Assembly: GCA_965234725.1 (NCBI GenBank)
Contig: CBDDUX010000066.1
Coordinates: 1-36,372 of the forward strand
Source: Thermoplasmatota archaeon
GTDB taxonomy: Archaea; Thermoplasmatota; Penumbrarchaeia; Penumbrarchaeales; Penumbrarchaeaceae
Length of the DNA stretch: 36,372 bases
Reading direction: 5' to 3'
Both the position numbers and the translations under genes were made by a program. Below, piece after piece: positions 1,462-29,389 of this stretch (position 1 is the first letter of the stretch; each line of letters opens with the position of its first letter). The notes beneath the pieces are model-generated. The model ran no database searches. It saw only the letters and a program-made list of their open reading frames with translations, and was not told the origin of the DNA.

Positions 1462-2766
1462 CTGAAGTTTTGCGTTTCAGATCAGAATCACCCTTTTCAC
1501 CTTCGTAGAGTTGTAGGGATACAATACTGATGTCACGATCTTTTCATAGCTCTTCCTACCATTTCTCCGAACGAATCTGATAAAACTCCTCAATAATTCA
1601 AGATGGAGCAATCGGCGCTTAAGTCCAGGCGTACCAACCTTTCTCTTCAAAACACCAAGCAAGGGGGAAAGCAAGGTGACTATCTCGAGGAAGGTGTCCG
1701 CGCAGGAACTCAGAGTGAGGTACTTACTCACTCCTTCAACACCCCTGAGCCGGCAATCCTTTAACCCGTAGTCCACCTTGCCTTCCCGATGCCATACTTC
1801 AATGTCCCATCTTCTACAATATATTTTCAATATCTTCTCCTCGTTCCAATCCAATCTGTTGCTCACAAAGAATTTGAAATTACCACGATCACTGTTTGAG
1901 ATCAACAATCGAACAGGACCTACACCTTTCATTTCTACGGTCATCACTTTCACAAGATAGGTGTCATCTCCAATCTTGACAGTCTTAAAACTCCTGCCCG
2001 GAAATATGCTTTCAGCATACTTCTTAACGGATGTCCATTCATTGTTTATCTTGATCTGTCTGTTTGATTTCACCTGGCCAACCCAATCCTTGTTCAATGA
2101 TTCAACATGATCAATAAGTTTCTTTGTAGTATACCATGTATCGAATGTGACTACTGAAAAAATCAAACCCATATCCACCAACTTCGTAAGGTGGACCTTC
2201 TGAAGTTCTATCTTGGTCTGATGTTTCTTCATGTCCAGCCATTTACTGTCTTTACGTATGTAGAGTGTCTGGAGCAATGGGAAAATACCATTTCCTGAGT
2301 ATACACAATCAACAACATTGTGCCCAAATACGTTCTTTCCTTCTGAGTGATCGAAATGGTAATCTGAACCATAGATCTTGGTCCCATATTTCTCCACGAT
2401 GTAGTCATCAAGAATGACCACACCATTTTCATCTGCTCGATTTATCATTCCCATTCTGGTTTTGTCAAGTTTGTATTCACTCCATAAATTGGAGTTTACA
2501 AACCTGTTCAAGTTCGATTGATCGGTATGTTCTATGAAGGAACCGTTAATCTCTGTGATGGTTGATTTGTATGAGAAAAGGAAGCCAGTAAGCATCCTCT
2601 TGAATTGGTTGAATGTTCGTTTCTGATTGAATATCTCTCTGTAATATTCTGCAAGCTCTTCTATGAAGCACGGAAATCCCGCGATCGGAGTATCCATCCG
2701 CATCCCCGGGTATCAAATATAAACCTCAGAACATACAAATCTTTCGCTCAAAACGCAAAAGTCCAG
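1462..2766 (-). mobile_element. IS701-family insertion sequence (~1.3 kb)
   Basis: TIRs CTGAAGTTTTGCGTTT (1462-1477) and AAACGCAAAAGTCCAG (2751-2766) match 14/16. Direct repeat TAATTTA at 1455-1461 and 2767-2773; the TIR/TSD split is ambiguous. Single transposase ORF. Confidence 0.88.
1477..2703 (-). CDS. IS701-family DDE transposase
   Basis: Motifs DQSNLNRF, VILDDYIVEKYG (D), TFDTWY (D), YCRRWDIEVWHRE (YxxRWxIE, E). Intact 408-aa ORF. Confidence 0.88.
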   Translation of the reverse strand: MRMDTPIAGFPCFIEELAEYYREIFNQKRTFNQFKRMLTGFLFSYKSTITEINGSFIEHTDQSNLNRFVNSNLWSEYKLDKTRMGMINRADENGVVILDDYIVEKYGTKIYGSDYHFDHSEGKNVFGHNVVDCVYSGNGIFPLLQTLYIRKDSKWLDMKKHQTKIELQKVHLTKLVDMGLIFSVVTFDTWYTTKKLIDHVESLNKDWVGQVKSNRQIKINNEWTSVKKYAESIFPGRSFKTVKIGDDTYLVKVMTVEMKGVGPVRLLISNSDRGNFKFFVSNRLDWNEEKILKIYCRRWDIEVWHREGKVDYGLKDCRLRGVEGVSKYLTLSSCADTFLEIVTLLSPLLGVLKRKVGTPGLKRRLLHLELLRSFIRFVRRNGRKSYEKIVTSVLYPYNSTKVKRVILI

Positions 2767-5458: not shown

Positions 5459-8400
5459 TTACTCATCAAATAGACGGTCCAGGAGATCATCCTCTTCCTT
5501 ATCATCATATTCCGGAGATTCATTGTGGACCTCCTCTTTTGGAACTCCTTCTTCTTCGGATTCCTCTTGAAGATCCTCCTCTTCCTCAGATGGTACTTCT
5601 TTTTCAATGATCGGGACGACCGGAGAACTTGCTTTCTCCAATTCCAATTTCCAGGTCGCTATCTCCTCTTCGGTCGGGTCCTGCCCATAGAGGTCCTTGT
5701 AGGTCCTTATCCTTTCAGTGATGGGATCGGTTGCCTTCTTCCTCTTGGAAGTGAACCTGCTGATCAATATCCCAATGAAGGCGATGATCGCTACAATGAG
5801 GAGCACAATAATGAGGAAGGCCGGAATGATCAGCCCATTCGGAAGGACCGAGAGGAACGGAAGTACGTCTGTGATATCATCGGTCAAAGGTGTCGATTCA
5901 TCACCACCAGGTGCATCCTTGACATCTATGACCAATCCTTCCACAAGTGTCTCCGTTGTCCCATCCTCGGATATGGCCTTGATGGAGAACATATACTCTC
6001 TCTTGGGGGTCTTCTCCTCGGGAGAGACAACGATATCAAATGCTTTTGGAATTGGAATATCCATTCCCTTTGATGACATTACAGAGAATGTCCCGACAGA
6101 TGTTCCGGTGGTCTCAAAGAATATCCAACCGGCATCCACGGGTTCCCCCTCCAGGTAAAGCGTGACATTATCCGGAAGGGTCCCTTTGTTTAGGATTTCA
6201 CAGTTCATAGGACCGGATATTGAGAAGCCCTTACCCCGAAAAGCAATATGGTTCTGTGGCAGGGTAAGGTTGATACTATAATCCGAGATCTTGAAAAGGG
6301 CGGTCCTGACCCTTGAGAAATTCCCGTTGGCCCATGCCATGACCTGTGTGGAATATGTCCCGACCCCCAGTCCCAGGGTCGACATATCGAACGAAGTGTT
6401 CTTGCCGAGGTCTATCCAATCGAGCACGTCACCGGTTAGATATGATGACCCCACTCGGAACCAGTAATCCGAATCCGGGATGTCCGATCCATCCCACTCG
6501 ACATTTACCGAACCTGTTCTGGTAAAATAGGGGCCGAACTCCGGGACCATCGAAGGGGGTTTTGGACCAAGGTCCTTGATCTGGAAGGGATGATCCATGA
6601 AATCCTCCCCTCCGATCCTGTCGGTCACATGTATCCTGAGAACATAGAAATCCGGGGCAAGTGCCTCCCTGTCAGGGAGATCGAAGAACGTATTGCTCCC
6701 GAGGTCGAAGAAGTCCATCAGCTGCAGATTGTTCCTCATGACCATTGCTCTGTAATAAAGGACATCGCCGTCCTCGTCGTATGCATCCTCCCACCAGAAA
6801 TGCGGGGTGGGGGATGCTACAATATCCGGCCATGCCCTTCCCTTGAAAACAGGACGGTAGTTATCAGGAACATCCACCTTCACAATGAACTCCCTTGATT
6901 CCACCAGGTTTCCAACATGGTCCGAGACCCTCCATTTGATCTTTGAATAAATTCCCTCATCCGGAAAGTTCACGGATACCCAGGCCCTGTAAGCTCCCTT
7001 ATCCACTTCCATACGACCGTCTGGGAACATCCAGTCCGAGAAACCTTCGGATGTTTTCTTGTAAGCATACATGATGGTAGATGGGTCCACACCGGTGAAT
7101 TCCAGATTGGTGCTTCCTTCCAGATTGTCCCTTATGGTGATTGAACAGTTCACATCCGAATATATCCGGGTATCGTTCTCCAGCGGACTCACATCCATGA
7201 AATAGGGTGGTGTGGGGTCCAGCCATATATTGATCGGGTCCGTGATGAATGGTCCATTACCCACTCTATCATAAGCTTCGAACTTGAGGTAGTTGTTCTT
7301 CCCGGGATACATAGTGGTAGATCCCCATGCTTCGATGGTATCGTTGTCTATGACCTTGTATCCCGACATCTTGATACCCTTGTCGAACTCATTGGGCCCC
7401 TGGAATGAAATGTTGAACCTGATCCTATCAGGGTCCACTCCGGCACCTCCGGTATCTGTAACTCTCACCCTGCAGTTGACCTTGGCGGAACTGTTCCACA
7501 CTTCCGGTGTGGGATCAAGGATCTCTATCGATGGTATAGATGTGTCAATTAGCGGTCCCGGTAAGATATCTGATGATATTATTGAAGGATCGGCTTCGTC
7601 GGATATCTCCATCTTCCAGTAGAACCTTCCTTCTTCAGGGATACGGACCGTCACATTGTACGGGACCCCATCCATATAATATATGTCAGAGGGACCTCTG
7701 TTCTTCCCAAGGATCACTGGCTGGGTGAGGACCGGGTCCGTTCCCTGGGGATCCCTGAAGAGGTACATTCTGGGGAATCCCTCCCTTGGAGCATCGTTAT
7801 CAGTATCCCTGTAGGTCAGATTGAACGTGAAATTTGTCATGGTCGATCCAACAGTGGGATCGAAACCGGATTCCCCGAAATACCATTTGGAGTCGATCAC
7901 TGGCAGATATGTGGTCCCATCAAGTGACTTCGAATGGCGGGACATGAAAAGGGACCTCTTGATCCCGTCACCCACCCTGTAATCACCATAATACGTGCAA
8001 AGCACCCTTCCAGTTTGGTCGTATACCCCTGCTGTATATTTCTGGTCAAGCCTGTCCTCCTTGAACCTGTCCTCATCATCTATCCTGAGGGGCTTTTCCC
8101 AGGTTTCCCCGTTATCACTGGAATCCATGTAGAATGCCTCGGACTCCAGATCAGGATTCCCATAGGAGTTCACGAACTCCACCTGTCTCTCCCAGGTAAC
8201 GAAAAGCCTGTTACCCCCATATGTCCCAATGAATGGGTCCAGGTCTCTGGTGTCCGCAGGTGGGTCTATCAGTCTTCTGTCAGGTGTGAAATTCCCTCCG
8301 TGGTCCGTACTCTTGACGAACCAGATCTCCTCCACATCCGATCTCTGGTCCACCCAGGCAATGTATAGTGTCCCATTGTCATCCAGAGCAGGGATAGCCC

Positions 8401-9280
8401 TGTCCCTGATATTTCCTTCAACCAGGTCATCCACAAAGGATTCCTCTATCTCGAATGTGGCTCCCGCATCCTGGGAAACGATGACATATGGCTTGGTGCC
8501 GTAGGTCTTGTCCCTGTTGTCATGCCATGTGGCGTAGACCAGGTCTCCGTCCATTACTACTCTGGGGTTGACTATCTTGATATTGCTGTCATATTTGCCA
8601 TCATTATTGATCATGAGTGGGGTTGACCAGCTTGATCCCTTGCTGTCCGAATATGAGGACCAAACATTGTTCTTGGACCCCACTTCTCTTTGATCAAGCC
8701 AGACTACGATCACTCGGCCATCCTGATTGACGGCTACATCGGATGTTGTCGCATGCTGGACCCTGTCCGGCGGTGGTGGTGAGACCTGTATCGATTCTCC
8801 GAATGACTCCCCATCGGCAGATACTGACATCCTAACCACTCTAGGATGTGTGAGCGCAATATCTTCCCTCCATTCCCTGTGATCCGTCCAGACCACAAAA
8901 ACAGTGCCATCAGGTCCGACATCCATTCTGGGGTTCACTTTCTGGGTTATGAAATTGCCATCCCCTGACTCATTGCCGTCTCTGAGGACGTCATCGACCC
9001 TTACAGGATCTGACCAGGACAGGCCATTGTCATCCGAATGGGTCAGATATGCCCCGTAGTAGAACTCGGGATTTCCTTCATAGAGAAGATATATCCTTCC
9101 ATCCGGTGCCACCACCATATCCCGAGTGGCCTGAAGATTTCTGTCGAAATCCTCTCCCAGTATCTTATATGGTTTCGAGAAGACCGGTTCCCCTGCCTCC
9201 ACATTATCTGGAACCAGGGGTATCATGGAGATCATGAGCAGTGCAATGCTGGCAAGAATCACGGGTGCGGTCCTGTTCAT
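5459..9280 (-). CDS. Large cell-surface protein: signal peptide, BNR/Asp-box beta-propeller (sialidase-like), Ig-like domains, TM anchor, acidic tail
   Basis: Six Asp-box repeats (SDDNGLSW, SADGESF, SDSKGSSW, SQDAGATF, STDHGGNF, SSDNGETW), hydrophobic N-terminus, TM segment AFLIIVLLIVAIIAFIGILI, GGAGG SD. Confidence 0.85.
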   Translation of the reverse strand: MNRTAPVILASIALLMISMIPLVPDNVEAGEPVFSKPYKILGEDFDRNLQATRDMVVAPDGRIYLLYEGNPEFYYGAYLTHSDDNGLSWSDPVRVDDVLRDGNESGDGNFITQKVNPRMDVGPDGTVFVVWTDHREWREDIALTHPRVVRMSVSADGESFGESIQVSPPPPDRVQHATTSDVAVNQDGRVIVVWLDQREVGSKNNVWSSYSDSKGSSWSTPLMINNDGKYDSNIKIVNPRVVMDGDLVYATWHDNRDKTYGTKPYVIVSQDAGATFEIEESFVDDLVEGNIRDRAIPALDDNGTLYIAWVDQRSDVEEIWFVKSTDHGGNFTPDRRLIDPPADTRDLDPFIGTYGGNRLFVTWERQVEFVNSYGNPDLESEAFYMDSSDNGETWEKPLRIDDEDRFKEDRLDQKYTAGVYDQTGRVLCTYYGDYRVGDGIKRSLFMSRHSKSLDGTTYLPVIDSKWYFGESGFDPTVGSTMTNFTFNLTYRDTDNDAPREGFPRMYLFRDPQGTDPVLTQPVILGKNRGPSDIYYMDGVPYNVTVRIPEEGRFYWKMEISDEADPSIISSDILPGPLIDTSIPSIEILDPTPEVWNSSAKVNCRVRVTDTGGAGVDPDRIRFNISFQGPNEFDKGIKMSGYKVIDNDTIEAWGSTTMYPGKNNYLKFEAYDRVGNGPFITDPINIWLDPTPPYFMDVSPLENDTRIYSDVNCSITIRDNLEGSTNLEFTGVDPSTIMYAYKKTSEGFSDWMFPDGRMEVDKGAYRAWVSVNFPDEGIYSKIKWRVSDHVGNLVESREFIVKVDVPDNYRPVFKGRAWPDIVASPTPHFWWEDAYDEDGDVLYYRAMVMRNNLQLMDFFDLGSNTFFDLPDREALAPDFYVLRIHVTDRIGGEDFMDHPFQIKDLGPKPPSMVPEFGPYFTRTGSVNVEWDGSDIPDSDYWFRVGSSYLTGDVLDWIDLGKNTSFDMSTLGLGVGTYSTQVMAWANGNFSRVRTALFKISDYSINLTLPQNHIAFRGKGFSISGPMNCEILNKGTLPDNVTLYLEGEPVDAGWIFFETTGTSVGTFSVMSSKGMDIPIPKAFDIVVSPEEKTPKREYMFSIKAISEDGTTETLVEGLVIDVKDAPGGDESTPLTDDITDVLPFLSVLPNGLIIPAFLIIVLLIVAIIAFIGILISRFTSKRKKATDPITERIRTYKDLYGQDPTEEEIATWKLELEKASSPVVPIIEKEVPSEEEEDLQEESEEEGVPKEEVHNESPEYDDKEEDDLLDRLFDE

Positions 9281-14060: not shown

Positions 14061-17000
14061 CTAAACGTTCCCCGAAACCCCGCAGAATGGACAGATGAGC
14101 TCCTTATCTGTGGATTTGATCGAGAACTTACCCTGGCAGGAGGGACATCTTACTTTGACATCCTCTATCACCTTCTCGGCGAACCTTTCCTCCAACCTGG
14201 CCTTTGTCTCATCATCCAGCTCTCCTCTGGCATTACAGAAGGGACATGTGGCCTCTTCCATGATATGGTCGAGTTCGAACATTCCGCTGCATGAAGGACA
14301 GATTATCGAGATCGGTTCAGGACCCTCTTCCTCCTCCTCCTCCGCTTCTTTTTCCTCATCTCCGGGGACATGGGAGATCGAACCCTTGGCCCCACAGTGA
14401 GAGCAGGTCATAAGTAACGGTCTTTCACCGTCGTCCTTCACCTTGAAAACCCTCTTGCAGGATGGACATTTTACCCTCACCATCTTAGGCTCTTCCACTG
14501 CCGGAGGTTCCTGCTTGGGAGCTTCCTTGGAAACAGGAGGTGTTTGGGAAGGCGAGAGATTTGCACTTGCAGGCGGACCCTGGAGCCCGCCTGGCGGGGT
14601 CATACGAGGAAGACCGGGACCCGGTCCGGGCGGAGGTATGGGTCCAAGAAGATCATGTGCTCTTGACCTTTTCTTTCCGAAAAGGAAATAGAACATCAGG
14701 ACCACCACGATCACCACAACTATGAAGATCACAATTCCAGCTATCAGACCGGAATTGTCCGTTTCAACGGTGTTGGATACCTGGAAGGATAATGAGGATG
14801 TCTGTTCCACACCGGTATCGAGAAAAACCCTTACTTCCAGCTGGTGCTTGCCATCGGAAAGCTTCAGGGTATTCAGATCATATTCCCAATCCGGAGGATT
14901 GTCCGCTTTATCCCAATCTCCTCCATCGATACGGACCTCTACCCTCTCAACCCTGTAGTCGATAATATAATCCACAGAACCCCTGAGGACGACCCTCCCC
15001 ATTAGTGTGGCCCCGTTCCTCGGGAATCTGATCACCAGACCATCGAATTCCACGACAGTTACTGTTGCTCTGGCATAACCCCAGAGGGAACCGTCGGTAA
15101 CATGGGAGAAGATCTCGTAGGTCCCTGCCTCGGAGTATTTGTAAGAGACCGTCGAGGTTGTCTCGTTCCTTATGGTCCCATCCCCGAAATCCCAGTGATA
15201 CTTCAGGTTCCTGGTCTGCCCGCTATCATCGTCTGAAGCGGTGGATGTGAAGTCAACCGTGGAGTTGACGTATATCTTGAATTTCTTACTGGACTGGAGG
15301 TTGGTCACCTCGGGCGGATGATCACCCTGTAATCGTATGATGAGGTATGATGACACGCCCATCCTGTCCGTTACGTTCAATCTCACCAACAGGACATTGT
15401 CATCGTCCACGGGGACCCTGACGGTCTTGCCTTTTTTGGTGAAATCGTTATCCTTGCTGCCGTCCCTGTCCGCATCGCTGCCAGCATCTAGGTCCCAGCT
15501 GTAGGTGAGATTGTTCTTCTCCCTTCCGTCAATGATACCGTTGTTGTTGGAATCGTCATCCGGATCAATGGAACTGCTGGCATCAAGTTCTATCTCTCCC
15601 CTGTCATCTGACATGGGCACTATGATCGGATCGTCTTCTTCGTTCCAACCAAGGACCTTTGGTATCGGAGGTTCATTCGGGAATCTTGGACCGACAATGA
15701 CCTCTGCTTCGGAGACCGCGAAGCCATCATCAACCAGGAGCTTGACGGTGTACTCACCCTCTTCATTGTAGGTAAATGTGATATTGTAACCTGATTGGTC
15801 GAAGATACCATCCCCATCCAGGTCCCATCGGTAGGTGAGCTTGTCCCCATCCTCGTCCGTTGTCCCGTTGGCAGAGAACTTGAATGCTTCCCCCACAATA
15901 ATGTCGCCTGGGGGTTCAATAATTGCATTTGGGATGGTGTTCACAGCTATCTTGAGAGTGGCGTTGGCGACATTATCGTAACTTGAGCCGTCATCAACTT
16001 CCAGGGTGACCGTATAGGTTCCGAATACCGACCATGAGTGGGAGATGTTGACACCTGTGGAAACGGACCCGTCACCCAGGTCCCATCGATATGAGAGAGA
16101 ATCACCATTAAGGTCAAAGGATGAAAAGCCGGATAGTTCTGCAGTTTCAGTGACATTAACTGTCCTGACACCGCCCCTGGACTTGATGTTCGGAGCTGAA
16201 ATCACCGCAACGGGCGCATCATTTGTAACCTTGATGTGCTGGAAATCCGAGGAGACCAGTCCGTCGGTATCCCGAACCTTAAGGGAGATGTTGTGTGACC
16301 CCTCCTCCAGGGTAATATTTAGCAGAGGGCCGTATCCAAGAACACTTCCTCCACTGAGATTGGTAGACCATGTGAAGTTCATGGTGTTCAACGTATCGAA
16401 GCTGTTTGGATCGGTGGTATCGGTCCCATCTAGAGTGATGATCTCACCCTTCATATAAACAGACCTTCTTGGAATGATATCCATCACGGCAGCAGGGCCC
16501 AATATATCCTCCCTCACCTTGATCATCTTCACAAGTATGGATTCTCCACCGTTTGGATCGGTCACTGTAAGGGTTATGTTGTGCCAACCGATCATCTTCA
16601 TCTCCCTTGTGAAGACAGGTAGGGAAGGAAATGGACCCTCGCCATCCACATCTGATACCCAGGAGAAAGTGAGGGCGGAAAGATCGGATTCCGGATCGGA
16701 CACCGTGGTCGCGTTGAATTCGATTGGGGCCGATATCTCGTAAAAAGGTCCCTCGGACCCTGAATCCATTGGAAGAATGGAAAGTGAATCAAGGATCGGG
16801 TCCTGGTTGATGCTTGGTGACACATCCACCTCAGCGGTCCCGAACTCTCCAAGGGGATCTGTCAATGTTAGCTGGATGGTGATCTTCTCTTCTGTGAAAA
16901 CCACAAAATTTGGACGGGACGTATCATTGTCTAAGATGTCGACATTATCATTCGATGTACATTCCCAAGACCAGGTGCAGTTGTCTATGTCCTCATCTGT

Positions 17001-17231
17001 GGAATTGGAACCGTCCAGATTAACGATCTCATTTAGCAGTACACCGGTTATTTCCTCTCCGGCATCCGCAACGGGGGGTTGGTTGTCTTCCCCTGCTCCA
17101 ACATCGGAACTTGCGGAGAACGGCACCACCGATATCGCCATTAGAAGGACGACAAGAAGGGGAACATACCCGTCGATCATCCTCGGGGAGGGGTGTCCCG
17201 CACTTCTCTTTTCTTTCATCAAAAGGACCAC
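14061..17231 (-). CDS. PKD-domain surface protein with TM segment, Pro-rich linker and three cytoplasmic zinc ribbons
   Basis: NQPPVADAG, WDLGDG, WDLDGDG and WDFGDG PKD motifs. TM segment IAGIVIFIVVVIVVVLMFYFLF. Six C-terminal CxxC motifs. Confidence 0.85.
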   Translation of the reverse strand: MVLLMKEKRSAGHPSPRMIDGYVPLLVVLLMAISVVPFSASSDVGAGEDNQPPVADAGEEITGVLLNEIVNLDGSNSTDEDIDNCTWSWECTSNDNVDILDNDTSRPNFVVFTEEKITIQLTLTDPLGEFGTAEVDVSPSINQDPILDSLSILPMDSGSEGPFYEISAPIEFNATTVSDPESDLSALTFSWVSDVDGEGPFPSLPVFTREMKMIGWHNITLTVTDPNGGESILVKMIKVREDILGPAAVMDIIPRRSVYMKGEIITLDGTDTTDPNSFDTLNTMNFTWSTNLSGGSVLGYGPLLNITLEEGSHNISLKVRDTDGLVSSDFQHIKVTNDAPVAVISAPNIKSRGGVRTVNVTETAELSGFSSFDLNGDSLSYRWDLGDGSVSTGVNISHSWSVFGTYTVTLEVDDGSSYDNVANATLKIAVNTIPNAIIEPPGDIIVGEAFKFSANGTTDEDGDKLTYRWDLDGDGIFDQSGYNITFTYNEEGEYTVKLLVDDGFAVSEAEVIVGPRFPNEPPIPKVLGWNEEDDPIIVPMSDDRGEIELDASSSIDPDDDSNNNGIIDGREKNNLTYSWDLDAGSDADRDGSKDNDFTKKGKTVRVPVDDDNVLLVRLNVTDRMGVSSYLIIRLQGDHPPEVTNLQSSKKFKIYVNSTVDFTSTASDDDSGQTRNLKYHWDFGDGTIRNETTSTVSYKYSEAGTYEIFSHVTDGSLWGYARATVTVVEFDGLVIRFPRNGATLMGRVVLRGSVDYIIDYRVERVEVRIDGGDWDKADNPPDWEYDLNTLKLSDGKHQLEVRVFLDTGVEQTSSLSFQVSNTVETDNSGLIAGIVIFIVVVIVVVLMFYFLFGKKRSRAHDLLGPIPPPGPGPGLPRMTPPGGLQGPPASANLSPSQTPPVSKEAPKQEPPAVEEPKMVRVKCPSCKRVFKVKDDGERPLLMTCSHCGAKGSISHVPGDEEKEAEEEEEEGPEPISIICPSCSGMFELDHIMEEATCPFCNARGELDDETKARLEERFAEKVIEDVKVRCPSCQGKFSIKSTDKELICPFCGVSGNV

Positions 17232-18999: not shown

Positions 19000-19326
19000 G
19001 GACCTACCTCCACATAGGAACCGCATCTGGACTTCGGGGGACCAGGGAGCAGCCAGGGTGAAGTGGGGTTTCAGTTATTTTTTTGTTTCCTTAATGTTAG
19101 ATGGAATTCTGATCGGGTTCATGGAAAAGTCCAATGACCATATGAAAAAATCGAACCCTGGCCATTAACGTATGGATTTTCTGTCATCATGACCAAGATG
19201 AGAGGGATATAAGAGAAAAAACCCTTCTCCCTTCTGGATATAAGTAGGGGGCATGTGAATGAAAGTTTTTTTATCGAACCTACATGATTGGAGCCGTCGA
19301 CATACGAAATAACAGGCAGGTACATA

Positions 19327-19914
19327 ATGGACAGGCCAAGCAAAGTGGATGAAGGACCCAATAAAAAAGAACGAATGTCCTCGGTCTATGTGAAATGGGT
19401 AGCCATAGGGATCGGGGTGTTCATGGTCATGGTTGGAGGTTTGCTCCTACTGTGGGGTTTTTCATACCAGGCAACCGTGGGAGAGCCGACCGATCTGGAG
19501 GGTGATGAACTTAAAGGGGGTCCTGTCCTGGTCCCGATAGGAGCTGCTTCCATCGCATTTGGAGCATTATGGCTATTCTATGGGATCAAGGGATTCAAAC
19601 GTCCGGGAGAGGAGGTCGGCATGAAAAGATGTCCTCATTGCGGAAAGACCATCGAGGAGGACCTTAATTTCTGCTATCACTGCGCCACGACCTTCACCAC
19701 TCCCGAAGAGGTGGAAAGGGAGATGAGGTCTGTGGAAGAGGAAGAAGAAGAGGATCCTGAGGAAAGTACCTCGGATGATGGTCCGTCCAAAGGTCAGATG
19801 GCCAGGATGAGGAGGCAGCAGGAAAGGAGACCATCATCCGATAATGAGTTGGATGGCATTGAAAGAAGAGCTTCTCCTCTTAAAGGACTTGAAGGAGGGG
19901 GGAAGGGTCAGTGA
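19327..19914 (+). CDS. Membrane protein (2 TM) with zinc ribbon and acidic tail
   Basis: Two hydrophobic segments and CPHCGK...FCYHCA. Start placed at ATG 19327 (track start 19288). Confidence 0.75.
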   Translation: MDRPSKVDEGPNKKERMSSVYVKWVAIGIGVFMVMVGGLLLLWGFSYQATVGEPTDLEGDELKGGPVLVPIGAASIAFGALWLFYGIKGFKRPGEEVGMKRCPHCGKTIEEDLNFCYHCATTFTTPEEVEREMRSVEEEEEEDPEESTSDDGPSKGQMARMRRQQERRPSSDNELDGIERRASPLKGLEGGGKGQ

Positions 19915-19948
19915 AAGTATTTTTAGACCATGGTATATACACTCGTTC

Positions 19949-21124
19949 ATGAAGACCGCCCTTGACGCCCTCAAGCGTAGCAATATATTCAAAGACCAAT
20001 CAAAACTTTCCTTTGACTTCGTCCCAGAGGAACTACCGGGCAGGGAAAAGGAGATGGACGGTCTTGCAAGATTGTTCAGACCCGTACTCTACGATAAGAT
20101 GAGCCAAACTGCACTCATAACAGGACCTGTTGGCTCTGGTAAGACCGCTGTGGTGAAAAGATTCTGCATGGTCCTGGAAAAAGCAGGATTGGAGAACAGA
20201 AGGAGGATCGAGAGCGTCCACGTCAACTGCAGGAACCGGAAATCAGAATCCATGGTCCTGCTCTCCATCCTCACCCACTTCGATCCCAGGTTCCCCGACA
20301 GAGGATTCTCCATTCCGGAAATGATAGAGATCCTTAAGAAGCATCTCAAAAGGAAGGAATGCCACCTGGTCATAGTCCTGGATGAGGCGGATGTGCTCCT
20401 GAAAAGGTCCGGATCGGACCTTGTCTATAATTTCACACGTATCCAGGAGGAGGATTCAGACCTCCTGGGTTCGATCTCCCTTGTCATGGTCAGCCAGAAG
20501 GCAGTAGTCCAGCTTCTTGACAAGGCATCACTTTCCACTTTCAAGAGGACGAACCATCTGGAGTTCGGGAAATACGATATGGATGTCCTCAAGGCAATAG
20601 TGGACCAGAGGATAGAAATGGCCTTCCATCAGAATATCGTGGAAGATGGTGTCTCCGAGATGATCGCCTCCATGGCAGAGGAGTACGGCGATGCCAGATT
20701 TGCAATTGAACTCCTTGAGAAATCCGGGATGGTTGCTGAGGAGAAGGGAAGCGATACGGTCAATCCGGAGCATTCCAGATGGGCCAAGGCTGACGTGAAG
20801 CCGTTCATCTTCGAGGAGACAATACATCAGCTCAATGTCCATGAACAGGTGATGCTCCTTGCCGCATCCAGGCTCCTGAAAAGGACCGCCTACTGTTCCA
20901 CAGGAGAGCTTGAAACAGAATATCAGGCATTGTGTGAACAGGTCAACAAGAAACCCCTGGGGCATACCCAGTTCTGGCAGTACATGAAGGAGATGGATGC
21001 TTTCGGCCTGATCTCAACGAAGAGGTCCGGGAAAGGTACTGTGGGGAACACTACTCTGATAACGATCCAGGACGTTCCTGTCCAGGAGCTTATCGAATAC
21101 CTTGAAAGGACCTTGCTTTCCTGA
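19949..21124 (+). CDS. cdc6: ORC1/Cdc6-type replication initiator
   Basis: DFVPEELPGRE, Walker A GPVGSGKT, HVNC, Walker B IVLDEAD, sensor GDARFAI, C-terminal winged helix. Start placed at ATG 19949. Confidence 0.93.
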   Translation: MKTALDALKRSNIFKDQSKLSFDFVPEELPGREKEMDGLARLFRPVLYDKMSQTALITGPVGSGKTAVVKRFCMVLEKAGLENRRRIESVHVNCRNRKSESMVLLSILTHFDPRFPDRGFSIPEMIEILKKHLKRKECHLVIVLDEADVLLKRSGSDLVYNFTRIQEEDSDLLGSISLVMVSQKAVVQLLDKASLSTFKRTNHLEFGKYDMDVLKAIVDQRIEMAFHQNIVEDGVSEMIASMAEEYGDARFAIELLEKSGMVAEEKGSDTVNPEHSRWAKADVKPFIFEETIHQLNVHEQVMLLAASRLLKRTAYCSTGELETEYQALCEQVNKKPLGHTQFWQYMKEMDAFGLISTKRSGKGTVGNTTLITIQDVPVQELIEYLERTLLS

Positions 21125-21185
21125 TGGTTCTAAGATTAAGGTCAGCTTGAACGGAACCCCTCAATATTCGTGCTTCCTACCATGA

Positions 21186-24100
21186 TCAGAGATCTGGCGG
21201 AGGAGGGGGAAGGTTCGTTGCTTTTGGTTCGGGAGGTTCTTCTTCCGGTGCATCTGCGAAAAGATCGTCTACCTGGCTCCCCTGTGAATCAGCATCCTCC
21301 TCAACCGGAGGCCTCCAGATATTCTTATCAGCATCATCTTCCGCCGGTTTTTCCTGTCTGAGGGTCTCTGCCGCATCCTCAAGGAAGGAATCGGGGAACT
21401 CATCTTCAGGTTCCGGTGCAGGAGGAAGACCCTGAGGGATGCCCCCTCCGGATACATTTTCCTGATCAGGGCCAGGTGGAAGACCCTGCATTGCCTGGCC
21501 TGGAAGACCCTGCTGACCTCCAGGTGGAAGTCCTGTCTCCGGAGCATAGGCCATCTGCTGGACCACCGGTTTCGGTTTTCTCATTGCAACGAAGAGGAAG
21601 AATCCCAGAGCTGCTATGACCAGGATGACCACTATCAAGATCACAATGATGAGAAGCAGGTCGGAATTCCCGTCATCTCCACCACTTTTTACAGGATGGG
21701 ATTTGGGGTCAAGTGGGTTCGTATCCTTCTGGTATTCATCCAAATTTGTGAATCCGTCCTTGTCATTATCCAGACCGGCATCGTTGATATTCTTGTTCAG
21801 ACCGTTATCATCCTCATAGACATCAGGCATACCATCTCCGTCGGAATCCAGGTCCGGATCAGGTTCCGGTTCTTCCTTGGGATAAATGGTGATGGTCCTG
21901 GTGATCTGCTCTTTGAGGCCTGAGGGGTCGGCAACCGTTACGGTGATTATGTATGATTGGTCCTTCTTGTAGCTGTGGACCACATTCTCTCCTGTAACCG
22001 TTCCAGTATTGTCCCCGAAATCCCAGGTTACCGTCAGATCGTCCCCATCCGGATCGTTCAGGTCCTCAACGAAGAAGGTGATGTTGTTGCCTACAACAAG
22101 GTCCACGGATGTTCCCCAATCGACCCTGAAGTCCCCGGGAGGATCGTTCGTGTTCACCACTTCATACTGGACTATGACCGAATCCGCCTCCTCGTCCTCA
22201 TCAAGCACAGTGATCACAACGGTATGGAAGCCCACCATGTCCTGGTTCGGTCTGATGGTGAAGTTGCCGGCGAAATCATCAAGGGGATCCTGGAAGAACT
22301 GGAAGCTTGTATCCACGACACCGGAAGCTTCCCTGGCCTCGAATGTGATCGAATCCTTGGGATCGATATCCTGTGCTGTCACATAGATGTAAAAAAGTGA
22401 ATCCTCCAGTGCATACTGTCCGGTCTCCTGTGTCAAGAATATCTTTCTTACTGACCCATCCTTGACAGGGATCTCGTTGTTGACCGTCAGTATCTCAGGA
22501 GCATCGTTCCTGTTCTCGATCGTCAGCCTGATGGTGATGTCCTGGCTCATGGAATTTGCCGCATCCATGCAGAACAATGAGGTCTCCACCATTGTGGCGA
22601 TGGAATCATCGTTCGTTGGAGTGTAGGTGACATAGGCCTTGAGTGGATCTGTCGGATGGGGATGGACCTCCCAACCCTGGCCTCCTACGGACCAGGTCAG
22701 AAGATCTGCCTGTCCTATGAGTATGTCCGGATCCGAGGCGGTGACCGTGAGGTTGATCTCCGAATCCTCCCTGACATTCCTGAAGGTGGGATTATCTTCT
22801 GTTGTCAGGTCGAAGGACGCTCCCTTCAGAGACCATTCGATCTCAACCAGTTCGGGTTTGTCGTTCTTGTTGGTAATGACGAACATGAGGTCGGCATAGT
22901 CGTCCTCGTCCCTTCCCTTCTGATCATCGACCCAGATCCTTACATAGGTGGTTCCCACGTCGTCGTTTGTTGGAAGGAATGAAACCTGACCGTTTTTGTT
23001 CATCGTGAACGCGGGGGTGGTGGCATTGTGGGTGTAGACCAGCCTAGTAAGGTCCTCAGTATCGTTGTCCCCGCCGTAGATCTTCTTGTCCCGATAAATG
23101 TTCCTTCCCTGCTGGAAGGATATCAGTATCGGTTCATGATCATTCGGAATTGCTCCACCTACAGGGGCGTCAACCTTCTCGATGTAAGCATCATCGTTCA
23201 CAGGGTTCACAACGATCTCGAAGGTATTGGAGATCGCCTCCCTGTCATCTATGGAGATCGAAGCATCAAGTACACCGTAATCGTAACAACGTACCTTGTA
23301 TTCTCCCTCACCATACCAATTTGGTTCCGTAACGTTTACCCAAAGGTACCTACCATCCTTGATGGTGACCTCCAGCTCATCCGGATTTGTTACACCTGAC
23401 GGTTTGGTAACCTTGAACTCGAGAGGCGTAATGGTATCCTCATCGGAAAAGTGGGTAAGAAGGTCCGTCACATACCATGGACCCTCATCTTCCTCGAAAT
23501 CCTGGTCCTCTATGGGAAGAGAGAATGTCGGGGCCTTGTTGGGGGGTATCAGATCCGCGGAGATCGAAGTGATGTTGTAGAACATCTCAGCGTTACCCTC
23601 AGCTCCTGGATAGTATCGACCGCTTTGGGTGTCACCCCAGTAGGAAACGGGTCTCATCCCAATCCAAAGATGGTCCGCCTGTGTCCGGTAATTGATGGTC
23701 ACGGGATCCATATTGAAAAGTGCTGCTGCAGCTGGCAGGCTATCGCCGGGAGTATAGATGCCCAGCTGTTGAGATGTGTAATTCAACCATACCAGATAGA
23801 TGACCATCAAAGTGGTTGTCGGAGATTGGGTCCCGTATAATCCGTATGGATTGAACATGGTTCCCCTCTCCTCGGTGGCAACATCTACACTGAGACCGAA
23901 CCTGATCTCGTCACCCCTATCTATGTCCAGGTTCGTGTCCGTAATTGCTCCTGACAGATCGAACCAGTCGAAAAGGTCATGGGACCGATTTATACTCTGC
24001 ATCTTTGGGGGGGCGTTCGTCGAATTATATATTGGTCCCACACCAAAGAAACCGTTCCATTCGGTCCTTGTGGTACTTGTGATGTCTATCTTGAAAGAGT

Positions 24101-24812
24101 AGTTGAGACTCGTACTGTTCCAGGACCTGAACCTCAGCATGATGGGTATTTCAAGGTTGAGGGTCAAGTCGCCTTCGGGGACGATCACTATTGTTTTACT
24201 ACTTCCATGGAATTTTCCAACTGATTCAAAACCACCGTCTATCCATTGCCCGAACAGGTAATCCACCTGGAGGATCTCAACCGTAAGAGAGGCGTTCTGG
24301 TCCACGGCATCCGTGGAGGTTACGGTGATCTCGAGTCTGTCAACTGTCGAATTGATACCGTCGCTTGTCAGATTTACCTGATAGAAGTCCTCGTCATCGA
24401 ATGTGATGGTGGTTCCAGAGATGGTCGATGTAACATTATTGGAGATCTCATCGTCATCATAGGCATAGAACGGGTTGTCGATATCATCGGCTTCTTCTTC
24501 AGCCATGATCGAATCGGTCATGGTCCTCATGGATGACCTTGGGATCCTGCTTGTATCATATAGTGAAGCTGGAATATTGTCAATATCATCGATGTCGATC
24601 GTCCTGAAGTCTCCTACTCCGGCTTCCATGAGTTCGTTCAGATCGATGAATGGCTGATCGGGTTCAAGCAGACCGGACGGGGTCTGTTCAACTTCGGGTA
24701 CTTGTATATCGGCATCAGTTTCCGTGGACGTTCCTGCGTCCACAAAGAATGGTATGACAGTTGTGATCATCATGATGGCGATCAACAATGGAAAAAATCC
24801 GTTTCTCTTCAT
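21186..24812 (-). CDS. Large surface adhesin-like protein: cadherin-like repeats, PKD domain, Ca-binding TSP3-like repeats, TM segment, Pro/acidic tail
   Basis: GGAGG SD before MKRNGFF (24812) and a signal peptide. Repeated NxAP/NDxP domain starts, WDFGDN, DSDGDGMPDVYE and DNDKDGFTNLDEY. TM segment LLLIIVILIVVILVIAALGFFLFV. Confidence 0.85.
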   Translation of the reverse strand: MKRNGFFPLLIAIMMITTVIPFFVDAGTSTETDADIQVPEVEQTPSGLLEPDQPFIDLNELMEAGVGDFRTIDIDDIDNIPASLYDTSRIPRSSMRTMTDSIMAEEEADDIDNPFYAYDDDEISNNVTSTISGTTITFDDEDFYQVNLTSDGINSTVDRLEITVTSTDAVDQNASLTVEILQVDYLFGQWIDGGFESVGKFHGSSKTIVIVPEGDLTLNLEIPIMLRFRSWNSTSLNYSFKIDITSTTRTEWNGFFGVGPIYNSTNAPPKMQSINRSHDLFDWFDLSGAITDTNLDIDRGDEIRFGLSVDVATEERGTMFNPYGLYGTQSPTTTLMVIYLVWLNYTSQQLGIYTPGDSLPAAAALFNMDPVTINYRTQADHLWIGMRPVSYWGDTQSGRYYPGAEGNAEMFYNITSISADLIPPNKAPTFSLPIEDQDFEEDEGPWYVTDLLTHFSDEDTITPLEFKVTKPSGVTNPDELEVTIKDGRYLWVNVTEPNWYGEGEYKVRCYDYGVLDASISIDDREAISNTFEIVVNPVNDDAYIEKVDAPVGGAIPNDHEPILISFQQGRNIYRDKKIYGGDNDTEDLTRLVYTHNATTPAFTMNKNGQVSFLPTNDDVGTTYVRIWVDDQKGRDEDDYADLMFVITNKNDKPELVEIEWSLKGASFDLTTEDNPTFRNVREDSEINLTVTASDPDILIGQADLLTWSVGGQGWEVHPHPTDPLKAYVTYTPTNDDSIATMVETSLFCMDAANSMSQDITIRLTIENRNDAPEILTVNNEIPVKDGSVRKIFLTQETGQYALEDSLFYIYVTAQDIDPKDSITFEAREASGVVDTSFQFFQDPLDDFAGNFTIRPNQDMVGFHTVVITVLDEDEEADSVIVQYEVVNTNDPPGDFRVDWGTSVDLVVGNNITFFVEDLNDPDGDDLTVTWDFGDNTGTVTGENVVHSYKKDQSYIITVTVADPSGLKEQITRTITIYPKEEPEPDPDLDSDGDGMPDVYEDDNGLNKNINDAGLDNDKDGFTNLDEYQKDTNPLDPKSHPVKSGGDDGNSDLLLIIVILIVVILVIAALGFFLFVAMRKPKPVVQQMAYAPETGLPPGGQQGLPGQAMQGLPPGPDQENVSGGGIPQGLPPAPEPEDEFPDSFLEDAAETLRQEKPAEDDADKNIWRPPVEEDADSQGSQVDDLFADAPEEEPPEPKATNLPPPPPDL

Positions 24813-24943
24813 GCATTTTCCTCCAGGATGGCTGTTTCGGGTGCATCGAGGGGCAGCATATGCCCTATCAATGGTCCAGATGAACAAAGTGATTATAAAG
24901 TGTTTATGGTCAGTTGCGGCACTAATAATGTCAGGATGTTGTG

Positions 24944-25339
24944 TCAAGAGGGCCTTGTCCAGACATCGTCCGGGATGTCCTGGTATACATTGAAATCATC
25001 ATCCTCGATGGGACAATCATTACCATCCACACAGGACATGACCTCTATGGCATTCTTCTTGAGGAGCCAGTAGTGTATCCTCCACTCCCTGCCGTCATAG
25101 AGTGTTGTCTCCTCCCTTTCCGTGACAAGGAGTCCGAAATCCTCCAGCATGTAGAACAGGTCCCTATCCTCCGGTTCCAGAATATTATCAACTATCCTGT
25201 CACCGAAACCGAAGAAATTGAGGACATGGTATGCCATGTTCTGGGCATCCTCCTGGCTCATATTGTGCTCCTTGTAAGAGTTGACAATGGCCGCCGTCAT
25301 TCTGTTGAGACTGATGATAAGACCCATATTCCCTACCAA
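24944..25339 (-). CDS. Conserved Thermoplasmatota protein (DUF6015-like)
   Basis: HVLNFFGFGDRIVDNILEPEDRDLFYMLED...EREETTLYDGREWRIHYW, recognised from memory as this family. Confidence 0.8.
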   Translation of the reverse strand: MVGNMGLIISLNRMTAAIVNSYKEHNMSQEDAQNMAYHVLNFFGFGDRIVDNILEPEDRDLFYMLEDFGLLVTEREETTLYDGREWRIHYWLLKKNAIEVMSCVDGNDCPIEDDDFNVYQDIPDDVWTRPS

Positions 25340-25543
25340 GCTACCACCTTATGCACTCTATGGAGGAGGTTACCTCCGGGGGCGGACCCGCCTATATAAG
25401 AAGCTATATATTACCGTTGTGGGGGTATTGATACTTAGATCAGCCACCGTTCAAGATGTGTAAAGGGTCCGTTGCACCGTTTGATAGCAAACTATTATAA
25501 GTCCTGTCCGATTTTGGTTGATATCCTACCTGGAGGAATGTGA

Positions 25544-26137
25544 TTGGCCTCGACCGACAGGCAACATGAGAAGAAGCTCCGAGAAGCAGAGAAGGCCTAT
25601 AACAAATGGAAGAAGGCATTCCTTGCGGGAAAGATCTCAAAGGATGAGCTGAAGGAACATCTTCGGCCGTTCAAATACGAGCTCAACGAGCTCAATCTGG
25701 TTAAGCTCAAGGAAGGAGATCTGCCCCCTGAAGCGGAAAAAGAGAGCGGATCCGAGGATCAAAAAGTCCCTGAGACCAAGCCCATGGCATCGGTCTCCTA
25801 TCCACCCTGGAAGAAAAGATCCTCTATTACAATGGATGAGATAGAGGAGAGGGTAGACCTCCTTTCCCTCGATTCGAGGCCTTCGGAGACCCTTCAGATG
25901 CTTTATGAGAAAAGATACGGAGAAGAACTTTCACCTCCGTCCGATCCGGTCACCTTCAAAGTGGAGAGCGAAGATGATGAGGAATATCTGCTTCCCGGAG
26001 CCAGTATCAGACAGCTTCCCTCCTTCGAAGAGGAGGAGAAGGAAGAGGATACACCGGGGGAGCTTGAAGGACCCGTGAAGAGGAAAGAGAGAAAGCCTTT
26101 CTGGAAGGGACTGGGAAGAAGGAAGAAGGATGGATAA
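25544..26137 (+). CDS. Hypothetical charged protein, probably co-transcribed with the proteasome alpha paralog
   Basis: GGAGG SD before TTG; ends 12 bp before the next gene. Confidence 0.72.
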   Translation: MASTDRQHEKKLREAEKAYNKWKKAFLAGKISKDELKEHLRPFKYELNELNLVKLKEGDLPPEAEKESGSEDQKVPETKPMASVSYPPWKKRSSITMDEIEERVDLLSLDSRPSETLQMLYEKRYGEELSPPSDPVTFKVESEDDEEYLLPGASIRQLPSFEEEEKEEDTPGELEGPVKRKERKPFWKGLGRRKKDG

Positions 26138-26149
26138 TCGCGGTGATAG

Positions 26150-27118
26150 ATGATGGAAAAGGACCACTATGATCAGGCGGCAACTGTATTCTCACCGGAT
26201 GGAAGGGTATATCAGGTGGAATATGCGAGGGAGGCCATCAAGAGAGGTGGTCTGGCAATGGGTATCCGCTTCAAGGGCGGGATACTGTTCACCATAGACA
26301 AGTCCATCTTCTCTCCACTTGTGGAAGAGGATAACATAGAGAAGTTCTTCAAGGTGACACCGACCATCGGTGCAGCAGCCTCGGGTTTGATTGCCGATGC
26401 AAGGGTCCTTATCGATCTTCTAAGGGACAAAGCCCAGGCAGAGAAGAGACGATACGGTGAGGAACCCGACATCCATACGATGGTGGAATGGGTGTCCAAG
26501 ATATACGAGGTCTACACCAGATACGAGGGCGTCAGACCATTCGGAACTGCAATAATCATCGGCGGGGTGGACCCAACAGGATTCCACCTGTTCGAAACGG
26601 ATCCATCCGGAGTTTTCCAGGAGAGAAGGGCCACGGCCATAGGGAAGGGATCGAAGACCGCAATGGAGATACTGGAAACCAAACACAGTGTGGACATCAG
26701 CCGTGATGAGGCCATAACACTAACATTCGAGATACTCAAGGCCACCCTTGTTGAGAGGCCTCAGGACATTCCCAAGGGAGAGGAACTCCATATAATCACA
26801 AAGAACGGTTTCGAAAGGATCGACCTCGATGCGGAAGGGGACAGGGTCAAAGAGCTTCTGGAGCGGGTGACGGCAGCCTCTCAAGAGTTGATATCAAAGG
26901 AGAAAGGACAGAAAAAGGAACTCGTGAAGGCTCAAAAGGACCTTCCTGATATACTCCTGGATATCAAAGGAGTATCCCAGGGGATCATGGGATCCCTGAT
27001 CCTGAAATATCCGGATATTGCCTCCCTGAAGAAAGCCAAAAGAAAGGACCTTATGTCCATCCCGGGTATCGGTAAGGTCCTTGCCGATAGGATAATTGAA
27101 GCTGTAAAGGACCTATGA
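26150..27118 (+). CDS. psmA: 20S proteasome alpha-subunit paralog fused to a C-terminal tandem helix-hairpin-helix domain
   Basis: YDQAATVFSPDGRVYQVEYAREAIKRG, IEKF, SGLIADAR, GVRPFG, ETDPSG and ATAIG motifs. C-terminal LLDIKGVS...DLMSIPGIGKVLADRI. GGTGA SD. Confidence 0.88.
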   Translation: MMEKDHYDQAATVFSPDGRVYQVEYAREAIKRGGLAMGIRFKGGILFTIDKSIFSPLVEEDNIEKFFKVTPTIGAAASGLIADARVLIDLLRDKAQAEKRRYGEEPDIHTMVEWVSKIYEVYTRYEGVRPFGTAIIIGGVDPTGFHLFETDPSGVFQERRATAIGKGSKTAMEILETKHSVDISRDEAITLTFEILKATLVERPQDIPKGEELHIITKNGFERIDLDAEGDRVKELLERVTAASQELISKEKGQKKELVKAQKDLPDILLDIKGVSQGIMGSLILKYPDIASLKKAKRKDLMSIPGIGKVLADRIIEAVKDL

Positions 27119-27168
27119 TGCGGTTTCCGTTCCAACCTTCAAATTATTCGGTTTCGTATCAATATCCA

Positions 27169-27603
27169 TCAGGCGAATTTCTTTGTATTCTTCAAGAGCT
27201 TGACGCAGGCTTCCACAGCGCTTCTGGCATTTTCTATTCTGGCCTGGGCCTGTCCCCGGGACATTCCCGGACCGGTGATCCCCAGACCAACTGGTTTGTC
27301 AGCTTCAAGGGAGATATCTATGATCTTCCTCGCAGAATGCTGGATCACAACATCATCATGGTCGGTCTCTCCCTCGATAACAGCTCCCAGGGCAACCACG
27401 CAGTCGATATCCCCCTGTCTGATCAATCTCTTCAGGGCAAAGGGGATGTCATATACTCCAGGAACACTGACGACATCCTTAACCTTGCATCCGAGGAACT
27501 CAGCGTGCGCCTTGGCCCTCTCCAGCATCATCATGGTTATATCGAAGTTGTACTCCGAAACCACAAATCCCATACCGATCTGTCTTTCTGTCATTGTTAT
27601 CAC
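27169..27603 (-). CDS. ribH: 6,7-dimethyl-8-ribityllumazine synthase
   Basis: VSEYNFDIT, VPGVYDIP, LGAVIEGETDHD and KPVGLGITGPG motifs. Confidence 0.95.
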   Translation of the reverse strand: MITMTERQIGMGFVVSEYNFDITMMMLERAKAHAEFLGCKVKDVVSVPGVYDIPFALKRLIRQGDIDCVVALGAVIEGETDHDDVVIQHSARKIIDISLEADKPVGLGITGPGMSRGQAQARIENARSAVEACVKLLKNTKKFA

Positions 27604-27621
27604 TCCATACTATCGATCTTT

Positions 27622-29330
<1,709 letters not shown>

Positions 29331-29389
29331 CGGCAATTACATTGAGGAATTGAAAATAAATATTTTGTAGATACCAAAAAATTGGTAGA

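Follow-up and report, generated by a model that had tools for sequence, protein, structure and literature searches.

A diverged second proteasome alpha subunit ending in an (HhH)2 domain in uncultivated Thermoplasmatota

The stretch of DNA analyzed here (the window) is the 36,372-nucleotide contig CBDDUX010000066.1 of a Thermoplasmatota archaeon (GenBank assembly GCA_965234725.1). At positions 26150..27118 of its forward strand is an open reading frame (ORF) that runs from ATG to stop and encodes 322 amino acids, assigned from the ORF call and from Pfam, NCBIfam, and PDB matches to a divergent proteasome alpha paralogue that ends in a domain of paired helix-hairpin-helix motifs, or (HhH)2. A complete archaeal proteasome alpha fold occupies residues 7–226. 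It begins with the alpha N-terminal signature (residues 7–29; 26168..26236, +), which is matched by Proteasome_A_N (PF10584, E 3.6e-12), carries the gate-opening cluster Y7-D8-Q9 ... P16 ... Y25, and belongs to the gate-region motif FSPDGRVYQVEYA that had been read from the window protein in a first-pass annotation and is indeed present. The N-terminal nucleophile (Ntn)-hydrolase-fold core follows (residues 30–226; 26237..26827, +), containing G33, K65, and L80, and is identified by Foldseek, by alignment, and by the Proteasome family (PF00227) at residues 30–200 (E 7.2e-44). Downstream of the core are a C-terminal helix and a disordered, variable linker (residues 227–263; 26828..26938, +), delimited by an AlphaFold2 model and a clade alignment, and then the (HhH)2 domain (residues 264–322; 26939..27115, +), which consists of a degenerate hairpin 1, I-K-G-V-S (272–276), and a canonical hairpin 2, G306-I-G308-K309. 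In Pfam this domain is matched by HHH_5 (PF14520) at residues 268–321 (37.1 bits against a gathering cut-off of 27, E 4.6e-9) and by HHH (PF00633) at 292–317 (27.1 bits against a cut-off of 24), and the charged helical linker and the DIKGVS...SIPGIGKVLADRI module described in the first-pass annotation are both found in the sequence. The reading frame is unbroken across the alpha/HhH junction.

Among the family models of NCBIfam, the protein scores above the cut-off of the archaeal alpha subfamily NF003075 (244.3 bits, cut-off 219) and below that of the equivalog TIGR03633 (237 bits, cut-off 287.35), and its best PDB sequence matches are the alpha subunits of M. jannaschii (3h4p, 5.7e-56) and T. 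acidophilum (1pma, 1.3e-53). The tail gives weak NCBIfam matches to UvrC, Hef, DisA, RuvA, and an HhH-bearing L32e model, and its best PDB sequence match is a ComEA-related HhH protein (1.8e-4). In a full-length AlphaFold2 model built from a 35-sequence alignment of the clade described below (A1), the alpha core is confidently modeled, and Foldseek matches the full model to archaeal alphas with E ~3e-20 and target-normalized template modeling (TM) scores of 0.74–0.81. The core ends in a helix at residues 230–254, and a predicted local distance difference test score (pLDDT) below 50 at residues 250–262 indicates disorder. The tail then forms five helices (265–270, 277–286, 290–294, 298–302, and 309–320) with pLDDT of 92–96. 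The same five helices appear when the tail is modeled alone, from an input of the window tail and 15 locus tails (A2), with pLDDT of 84–89. Pfam, the full model, the tail model, and Foldseek therefore agree on the architecture that had been proposed, an alpha fold with an (HhH)2 tail, and an HhH fold is predicted for the tail in both settings.

The tail model superposes on the (HhH)2 regions of the RadA/Rad51 N-terminus, ERCC1, XPF, the C-terminal half of UvrC, FAAP24, RuvA, and DisA, at 1.5–2.6 Å over 52–57 columns, with Foldseek probabilities of ~1 and E-values of 0.06–0.45. Judged from the model, its nearest structural relatives are thus DNA-binding (HhH)2 modules (RadA/Rad51, UvrC, XPF, RuvA, DisA). 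Mean pairwise identity among 35 clade members is 70% in the core, 13% in residues 227–263, and 44% in the HhH domain. Hairpin 2 has an invariant G306-[IVM]-G308, L301 and A318 are invariant too, and Lys or Arg is found at position 309 in 91% of members, at 314 in 100%, and at 294 and 295 in 83–86%. Because the domain is far better conserved than the linker, with invariant G306 and G308 and conserved basic K294, K295, K309, and R314, the tail is, to judge by its conservation, under constraint.

In our search of an index of 5.8 billion proteins, 556 matches were obtained, and the cluster counts given here are from the best 120. The first 46 clusters (P0002–P0047) are 51–93% identical to the window protein, and the score falls from 246 to 202 bits after them. 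Precomputed Pfam annotations combine Proteasome with an HHH-family domain in 37 of these 46 clade clusters, and P0046 is also tailed by alignment; no HHH-family domain is found in the next 74 clusters (P0048–P0121), which are canonical alphas of 236–277 amino acids. A scan of a genome collection with clade-specific patterns, whose reach leaves canonical alphas outside, found 21 loci in 21 assemblies, all titled as Thermoplasmatota, Thermoplasmata, or Thermoplasmatales metagenome-assembled genomes (MAGs), one of them as “ex4484_6” (L003). The HhH end is present in 15 of the 21 loci as well as in the window. The six remaining alphas end at genuine stop codons within contigs, three of them (L012, L013, and L014; 251–266 amino acids) after a short neutral or acidic tail and three (L017, L018, and L019; 269 amino acids) after a Lys/Arg-rich one. 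No stand-alone HhH ORF occurs in the locus flanks, where a hidden Markov model (HMM) of the tail matches only the 16 fused ORFs. It could be argued that a misassembly, a frameshift, or a read-through has joined two separate genes; however, 15 independent assemblies show the same continuous ORF, as do 37 protein clusters drawn from several sources, no flank holds a separate HhH ORF, and the frame of the window gene is intact. Since the fusion recurs across assemblies, such an artefact is refuted, and we put its chance at practically nil. The fusion is therefore not peculiar to this assembly, the case that the first-pass annotation had named as damaging to its claim, but is shared by 15 of 21 species-level genomes.

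These proteins are already present in public databases, where they go by the plain name “archaeal proteasome subunit alpha”. A full-text literature search returned no description of an alpha-HhH fusion, as the first-pass annotation had suspected, although a mention outside the searched literature is possible. Neither proteasome nor HhH is mentioned in the main text of PMC12220078, as far as that text was available, and the accessible part of the 2026 review of proteasome plasticity (PMC13022661) has no mention of the fusion. The conserved alpha-HhH fusion is real and apparently undescribed in print.

With perfect synteny among the loci (described below), the tailed gene might have been taken for the only alpha of its lineage, which is ruled out by canonical alphas in the same assemblies. 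The class EX4484-6 was named Ca. Penumbrarchaeia in PMC12220078 (Microbiome, 2025), whose Table S10 lists 29 K03432 rows, one per MAG over 29 MAGs, with query lengths of 200–262 amino acids and 63–73% identity to the alpha of Methanomassiliicoccus intestinalis. According to this table, a canonical alpha of 240–241 amino acids lies on JAFGLL010000103, in the assembly whose contig JAFGLL010000063 carries L005, and another on JAGLEG010000378, in the assembly whose contig JAGLEG010000105 carries L018; a third canonical alpha, OYT45345.1, carries the title ex4484_6, which is also the organism of L003. Since separate canonical alphas are listed on other contigs of the L005 and L018 assemblies, this portion of the source supports the tailed gene as a second alpha (a paralogue) beside the canonical one in these genomes, in line with the paralogy first suggested from the window. 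An alpha HMM found no second proteasome-family ORF within ±10 kb of any locus. The alpha core in the window shares 97% identity with its counterpart in L002, and the window locus is syntenic with L003, and for these two reasons the window most likely belongs to the same lineage as these MAGs. For the beta subunit, 13 of the 32 K03433 rows in the available part of PMC12220078 give one each in 13 MAGs, a hint of a single beta in the lineage.

For the core, 35 clade members were compared with the 74 canonical alphas (P0048–P0121), with positions transferred from an ungapped alignment to 1pma in which window residue n corresponds to T. acidophilum residue n+1. Y7, D8, P16, Y25, G33, K65, L80, and G127 are invariant in the 35 clade members, and the equivalents of the gate-opening cluster and of the pocket for the hydrophobic-tyrosine-any residue (HbYX) motif are retained, the equivalence being that of the ungapped alignment. 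K65, the IEK lysine noted in the first-pass annotation, aligns without gaps to K66 of T. acidophilum, which we take to be the HbYX-pocket lysine. Of the other equivalents, Tyr8, Asp9, Pro17, and Tyr26 stabilize the open gate, and Gly34 and Leu81 touch the HbYX tail, as stated in the accessible part of PMC5227139.

Besides these retained residues, the core carries a set of fixed differences. Both groups reach at least 90% conservation in 67 core columns; the residue is the same in 54 of these and switched in 13, the latter including Q9 (R in canonical alphas), R124 (Q), E126 (G), R159 (Y), T70 (D), and H214 (A). Position 159 is R in the clade and Y in canonical alphas, each at 100%, and Q9 at 91% in the clade against R at 91% in canonical alphas replaces the YDR motif by YDQ, as had been observed in the window protein (Y7-D8-Q9). 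E126 is found in 100% of the clade and G in 97% of canonical alphas at that position, so that Y-E-G replaces Y-G-G with the pivot Gly kept. This altered counterpart of the Tyr126-Gly127-Gly128 loop, R124-Y125-E126-G127-V128 (26519..26533, +), is invariant in 35/35 clade members; its first three positions are occupied in canonical alphas by Q (100%), H (86%), and G (97%). In T. acidophilum the loop reportedly lines the alpha-annulus (structure paper of 1995). The N-terminal tail preceding YD has 5 residues in 23/35 clade members versus 9 in 58/74 canonical alphas. Tyr126-Gly127-Gly128 is a highly conserved alpha loop with Gly128 as the pivot of HbYX-induced rotation, according to the part of PMC5227139 at hand, and the annulus consists of one loop per alpha, just below the gate, according to that of PMC7910952. 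Taken together, a Glu in this loop, an Arg for an invariant Tyr, and a gate tail shortened by some four residues suggest a retuning of the gating or pore chemistry as well.

Archaeal alphas self-assemble into rings, and the tailed alpha might accordingly form an alpha-only ring outside proteolytic particles, a non-proteolytic scaffold or clamp on nucleic acids. The identity of the window protein to canonical alphas, only ~41–44%, its score below the TIGR03633 cut-off, and switched residues that include the conserved loop and the invariant Tyr would be in keeping with such a ring. However, the HbYX-pocket and gate-opening residues, which are relevant only to a gated protease, are invariant, and no dedicated partner is evident beyond the upstream gene product described below; we consider an alpha-only ring improbable.

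The history of the tail was examined in a tree of core columns comprising 22 clade rows and 10 canonical rows chosen as outgroup. The clade is recovered at 100/100 with a long stem. Within it, L012, L013, and L014 form one clade (100/100), and L017, L018, and L019 group with the HhH-bearing L015 (100/99); all remaining sub-lineages carry HhH, the long-branched L020/L021 pair among them, and the tree backbone is unresolved. The basic tail of L017–L019 aligns to the L015 linker and ends just before the L015 HhH domain. The simplest reading is one gain of HhH followed by two losses, a direction that is not provable from the tree alone. The six tail-less paralogues are natural tail-deletion variants and thus useful comparators.

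Searching 1.84 billion representatives with a tail profile yielded 9,680 matches at E ≤ 1e-3, headed by multi-repeat HhH proteins. Pfam annotation of 27 proteins chosen among the best 150 identified HhH-only proteins and fusions to L32e, Topo VI-A, NAD ligase, and FGE-sulfatase. The only alpha core among these best 150 belongs to a clade member (P0044), with no independent alpha-HhH fusion, and a word-index search with the tail alone returned a 93% sister (P0002) as its sole match, which carries no information on the origin of the tail. Because closely related HHH_5 domains sit on many unrelated proteins, the HhH module is, by sequence comparison, generic and promiscuous.

These observations bear on a further possibility, namely that the gene encodes an alternative alpha of the Haloferax alpha1/alpha2 kind, whose importance is in its diverged core, through condition-dependent rings that gate differently, and that its HhH domain is a tolerated accretion with little function. 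The gene and its core remained conserved through two losses of the tail, related HHH_5 domains are fused to many unrelated proteins, among them the four types just named, and the core has 13 fixed differences. Moreover, two to three alpha or beta subunits are often encoded in archaea, as stated in the accessible part of PMC13022661. On the other hand, the tail keeps 44% identity against 13% in the linker, with invariant Gly and conserved basic sites at distances where the core is down to 57%, and it is present in every major sub-lineage, the deepest pair included. We therefore regard an accretion of little function as quite unlikely.

All loci share a gene order of Orc1/Cdc6, a large PKD-domain surface protein, DUF6015, a conserved ORFan that we tentatively refer to as up197, and alpha. 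On the opposite strand 3' of alpha are lumazine synthase, a second protein of the 6,7-dimethyl-8-ribityllumazine synthase (DMRL) fold, a 3,4-dihydroxy-2-butanone 4-phosphate (DHBP) synthase fused to a cytidylyltransferase-like domain, and further genes. Lumazine synthase adjoins alpha in 20/21 loci, the exception being L015, where the contig ends. As gene order is identical in all loci, alphas with the three tail types (HhH, short, and basic) are positional orthologues. Among the 29 window ORFs scanned there are no exosome, RNase P, or further proteasome genes, which bears out the earlier remark that neighbours of the exosome and RNase P type are absent.

The up197 gene (25544..26137, +; 197 amino acids, TTG start) lies directly 5' of alpha in 21/21 loci. 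Conserved blocks of its product are an N-terminal helical region, a central PW.KRS.LT.EEIE..ID.LS...YGE.L.PP, and a C-terminal K.PFWK.L.K, the last of which resembles a basic amphipathic helix. The family has 61 members, every named one a hypothetical protein of a Thermoplasmatota MAG. None of the 61 has a Pfam domain. For up197 itself, Pfam gave only sub-threshold SHOCT-like matches (E ≥ 0.02), a PDB profile search found nothing below E 0.1, and a protein atlas gave no usable match. The gap between up197 and the alpha ATG is 12 nucleotides and contains GGTGA, and a putative promoter and ribosome-binding region of the gene pair, read from the sequence at 25494..25536 (+), comprises a TATA-like ATTATAA (25494–25500) and GGAGG (25532–25536). 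Given this short gap and these upstream elements, up197 and alpha are probably co-transcribed. A complex prediction of alpha (A1) with up197 (A3) scored 0.00, a value that counts neither for nor against binding. Because up197 is kept in all six genomes with an HhH-less alpha, it cannot depend on the HhH domain.

Other neighbours of the pair are conserved as well. The Orc1/Cdc6 gene (19844..21124, +) is ~5 kb 5' of the tailed alpha wherever a locus extends that far, at 75–98% identity, and no convincing cluster of origin-like repeats was found near it (18900–21300). The DUF6015 gene (24944..25339, −) is divergent from the up197-alpha pair, and its 74–95% identity across loci is above that of alpha itself. 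On the other side, the RibB (DHBP synthase)-cytidylyltransferase-like fusion ORF (28104..29336, −) lies next to lumazine synthase (27169..27603) and the second DMRL-fold protein (27622..28113), which we take to be the archaeal-type riboflavin synthase, and this cluster is kept in all loci extending there. ORFs of 120–200 amino acids antisense to the riboflavin genes, for example 27115..27726 (+), which starts inside the alpha stop region, are mechanical shadows of opposite-strand genes and not genes. As for the DUF6015 counterpart in L005, the available Table S10 of PMC12220078 gives it 52.8% identity to Methanomassiliicoccus MMINT_01900.

Elsewhere in the window, three very large proteins (5459..9280, 14061..17231, and 21186..24947, all −; 1,056–1,273 amino acids) have BNR or PKD domains and are probably surface proteins. 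The last of them ends in a hydrophobic segment followed by a Pro/Gln-rich acidic tail, and is 39–89% identical in related loci. The segment 1..6000 has a G+C content of 35–41%, compared with ~50% elsewhere, and carries a DDE transposase (DDE_Tnp_1 / ISC1217-like; 1477..2703, −) followed by three ORFs without a Pfam match; it is probably an inserted mobile element or a foreign segment. No Rfam family or tRNA was found in the window.

Our preferred reading, which we hold tentatively as quite possible rather than probable, is that the tailed gene encodes a second, specialized 20S alpha that tethers particles to nucleic acid in uncultivated Thermoplasmatota (EX4484-6 / Ca. Penumbrarchaeia and relatives). 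Either by itself or together with the canonical alpha, the tailed alpha would form part of alpha rings that sit on the beta core. As alpha C-termini are peripheral and protruding, according to the accessible part of PMC7910952, as many as seven (HhH)2 modules per ring would point outward on their tethers and leave the pore and activator pockets free. The binding of any one module to duplex nucleic acid would be weak and independent of sequence, and the combined avidity of seven would keep a fraction of the 20S particles on the nucleoid, where DNA-bound or DNA-trapped proteins could be degraded locally. Substrate entry would be retuned by the short gate tail and by the Glu of the conserved loop. 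A role in the proteolysis of DNA-protein crosslinks or stalled complexes is speculation.

Several points weigh against such tethering. Both ring assembly with beta and nucleic-acid binding are parts of the reading that we infer, and the evidence for a canonical alpha is from assemblies of relatives, not from the window's own genome. The Foldseek E-values of the tail are all above 0.05, as can happen for so small a domain. A canonical G-h-G is found in hairpin 2 only; for hairpin 1, most members have I-P-[KRG]-L-S, and the window protein has I-K-G-V-S. The net charge of the HhH domain is small (−4 to +5 across the 35 members), and the linker, 16–41 amino acids long, varies in net charge from −11 to +10 and is acidic in many. 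Furthermore, ERCC1, XPF, and FAAP24, among the best structural matches, presumably use their HhH2 largely for protein-protein pairing, and HhH has been lost in two sub-lineages, 6/21 genomes, and is therefore dispensable in some backgrounds. The range of linker charges also rules out a basic tether as a general DNA-binding feature.

Several of these points are shared by an alternative in which the tail is a protein-protein module that recruits a partner (up197, a regulator, or a substrate adaptor) or pairs with the tails of neighbouring particles. The domains through which ERCC1-XPF and FANCM-FAAP24 pair are among its best structural matches, its first hairpin is degenerate and its charge modest, and a conserved ORFan that could supply the partner is adjacent in 21/21 loci. 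However, the G-I-G-K hairpin and K294, K295, K309, and R314 are conserved as would be expected of a DNA-contacting HhH, and the candidate partner up197 is retained in the six genomes whose alpha has no HhH. We consider a protein-protein module unlikely, if still a serious contender.

Returning to tethering by the (HhH)2 tail, a more elaborate and rather unlikely version may be termed a “chromatin proteasome”, in which up to seven (HhH)2 anchors combined with a pore-side ring of Glu would give a nucleoid 20S that prefers basic DNA-associated proteins, with up197 as an adaptor or regulator. If true, its substrates would be chromatin proteins, stalled polymerases, and crosslinked adducts, and it would represent prokaryotic DNA-localized proteolysis built into the core particle and not into a regulator.

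Compared with known systems, the tailed alpha shares with canonical PsmA (T. acidophilum 1pma, M. jannaschii 3h4p, A. fulgidus 1j2q) the fold, the N-terminal signature, the gate cluster, the HbYX pocket, and the equivalent of the pivot Gly128. It differs in a C-terminal addition of ~95 residues (linker and (HhH)2), in the 13 fixed switches (among them R10 to Q, Gly127 to Glu, and the invariant Tyr to Arg), in a gate tail ~4 residues shorter, in not lying beside exosome or RNase P genes, and in falling below the TIGR03633 cut-off. With the (HhH)2 of RadA/Rad51, UvrC, XPF/ERCC1, RuvA domain II, DisA, and ComEA it has in common a five-helix fold of ~55–60 residues with one G-h-G-K hairpin, although here the module is on a protease ring subunit instead of a nuclease, recombinase, or helicase, its hairpin 1 is degenerate, and it is known from sequence and model. 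L32e with N-terminal HhH repeats and Topo VI-A with seven HHH_5 similarly carry the same promiscuous module on an unrelated core, and differ in the host proteins. DNA-protein crosslink proteases of the SPRTN/Wss1 type and DNA-binding Lon are also brought to their substrates by a DNA-binding element, a likeness in working only, with no homology. Haloferax volcanii alpha1/alpha2 likewise provide a second alpha beside the canonical one, with alternative or mixed rings possible (PMC13022661, in its accessible part). The Haloferax alphas are not known to have an added domain of the nucleic-acid-binding type, and the word “hairpin” is absent from the accessible part of PMC13022661; the tailed alpha is in a different phylum and represents an independent duplication.

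If the preferred reading of a nucleic-acid-tethered 20S is true, an alpha paralogue with its own domain of the nucleic-acid-binding type would be a simple natural case of core-particle localization encoded in the ring. Otherwise, it is regulators and adaptors that guide core particles to their substrates and sites; domains built into ring subunits are not known to do so. As the proteins are small and presumably easily expressed, and the lineage has been enriched to ~90% relative abundance (PMC12220078, in the part available), assembly, DNA binding, and localization are directly testable. The purpose of alternative archaeal alphas is mostly unknown according to the accessible part of the 2026 review (PMC13022661), and the tailed alpha offers a concrete, testable example of what they are for.

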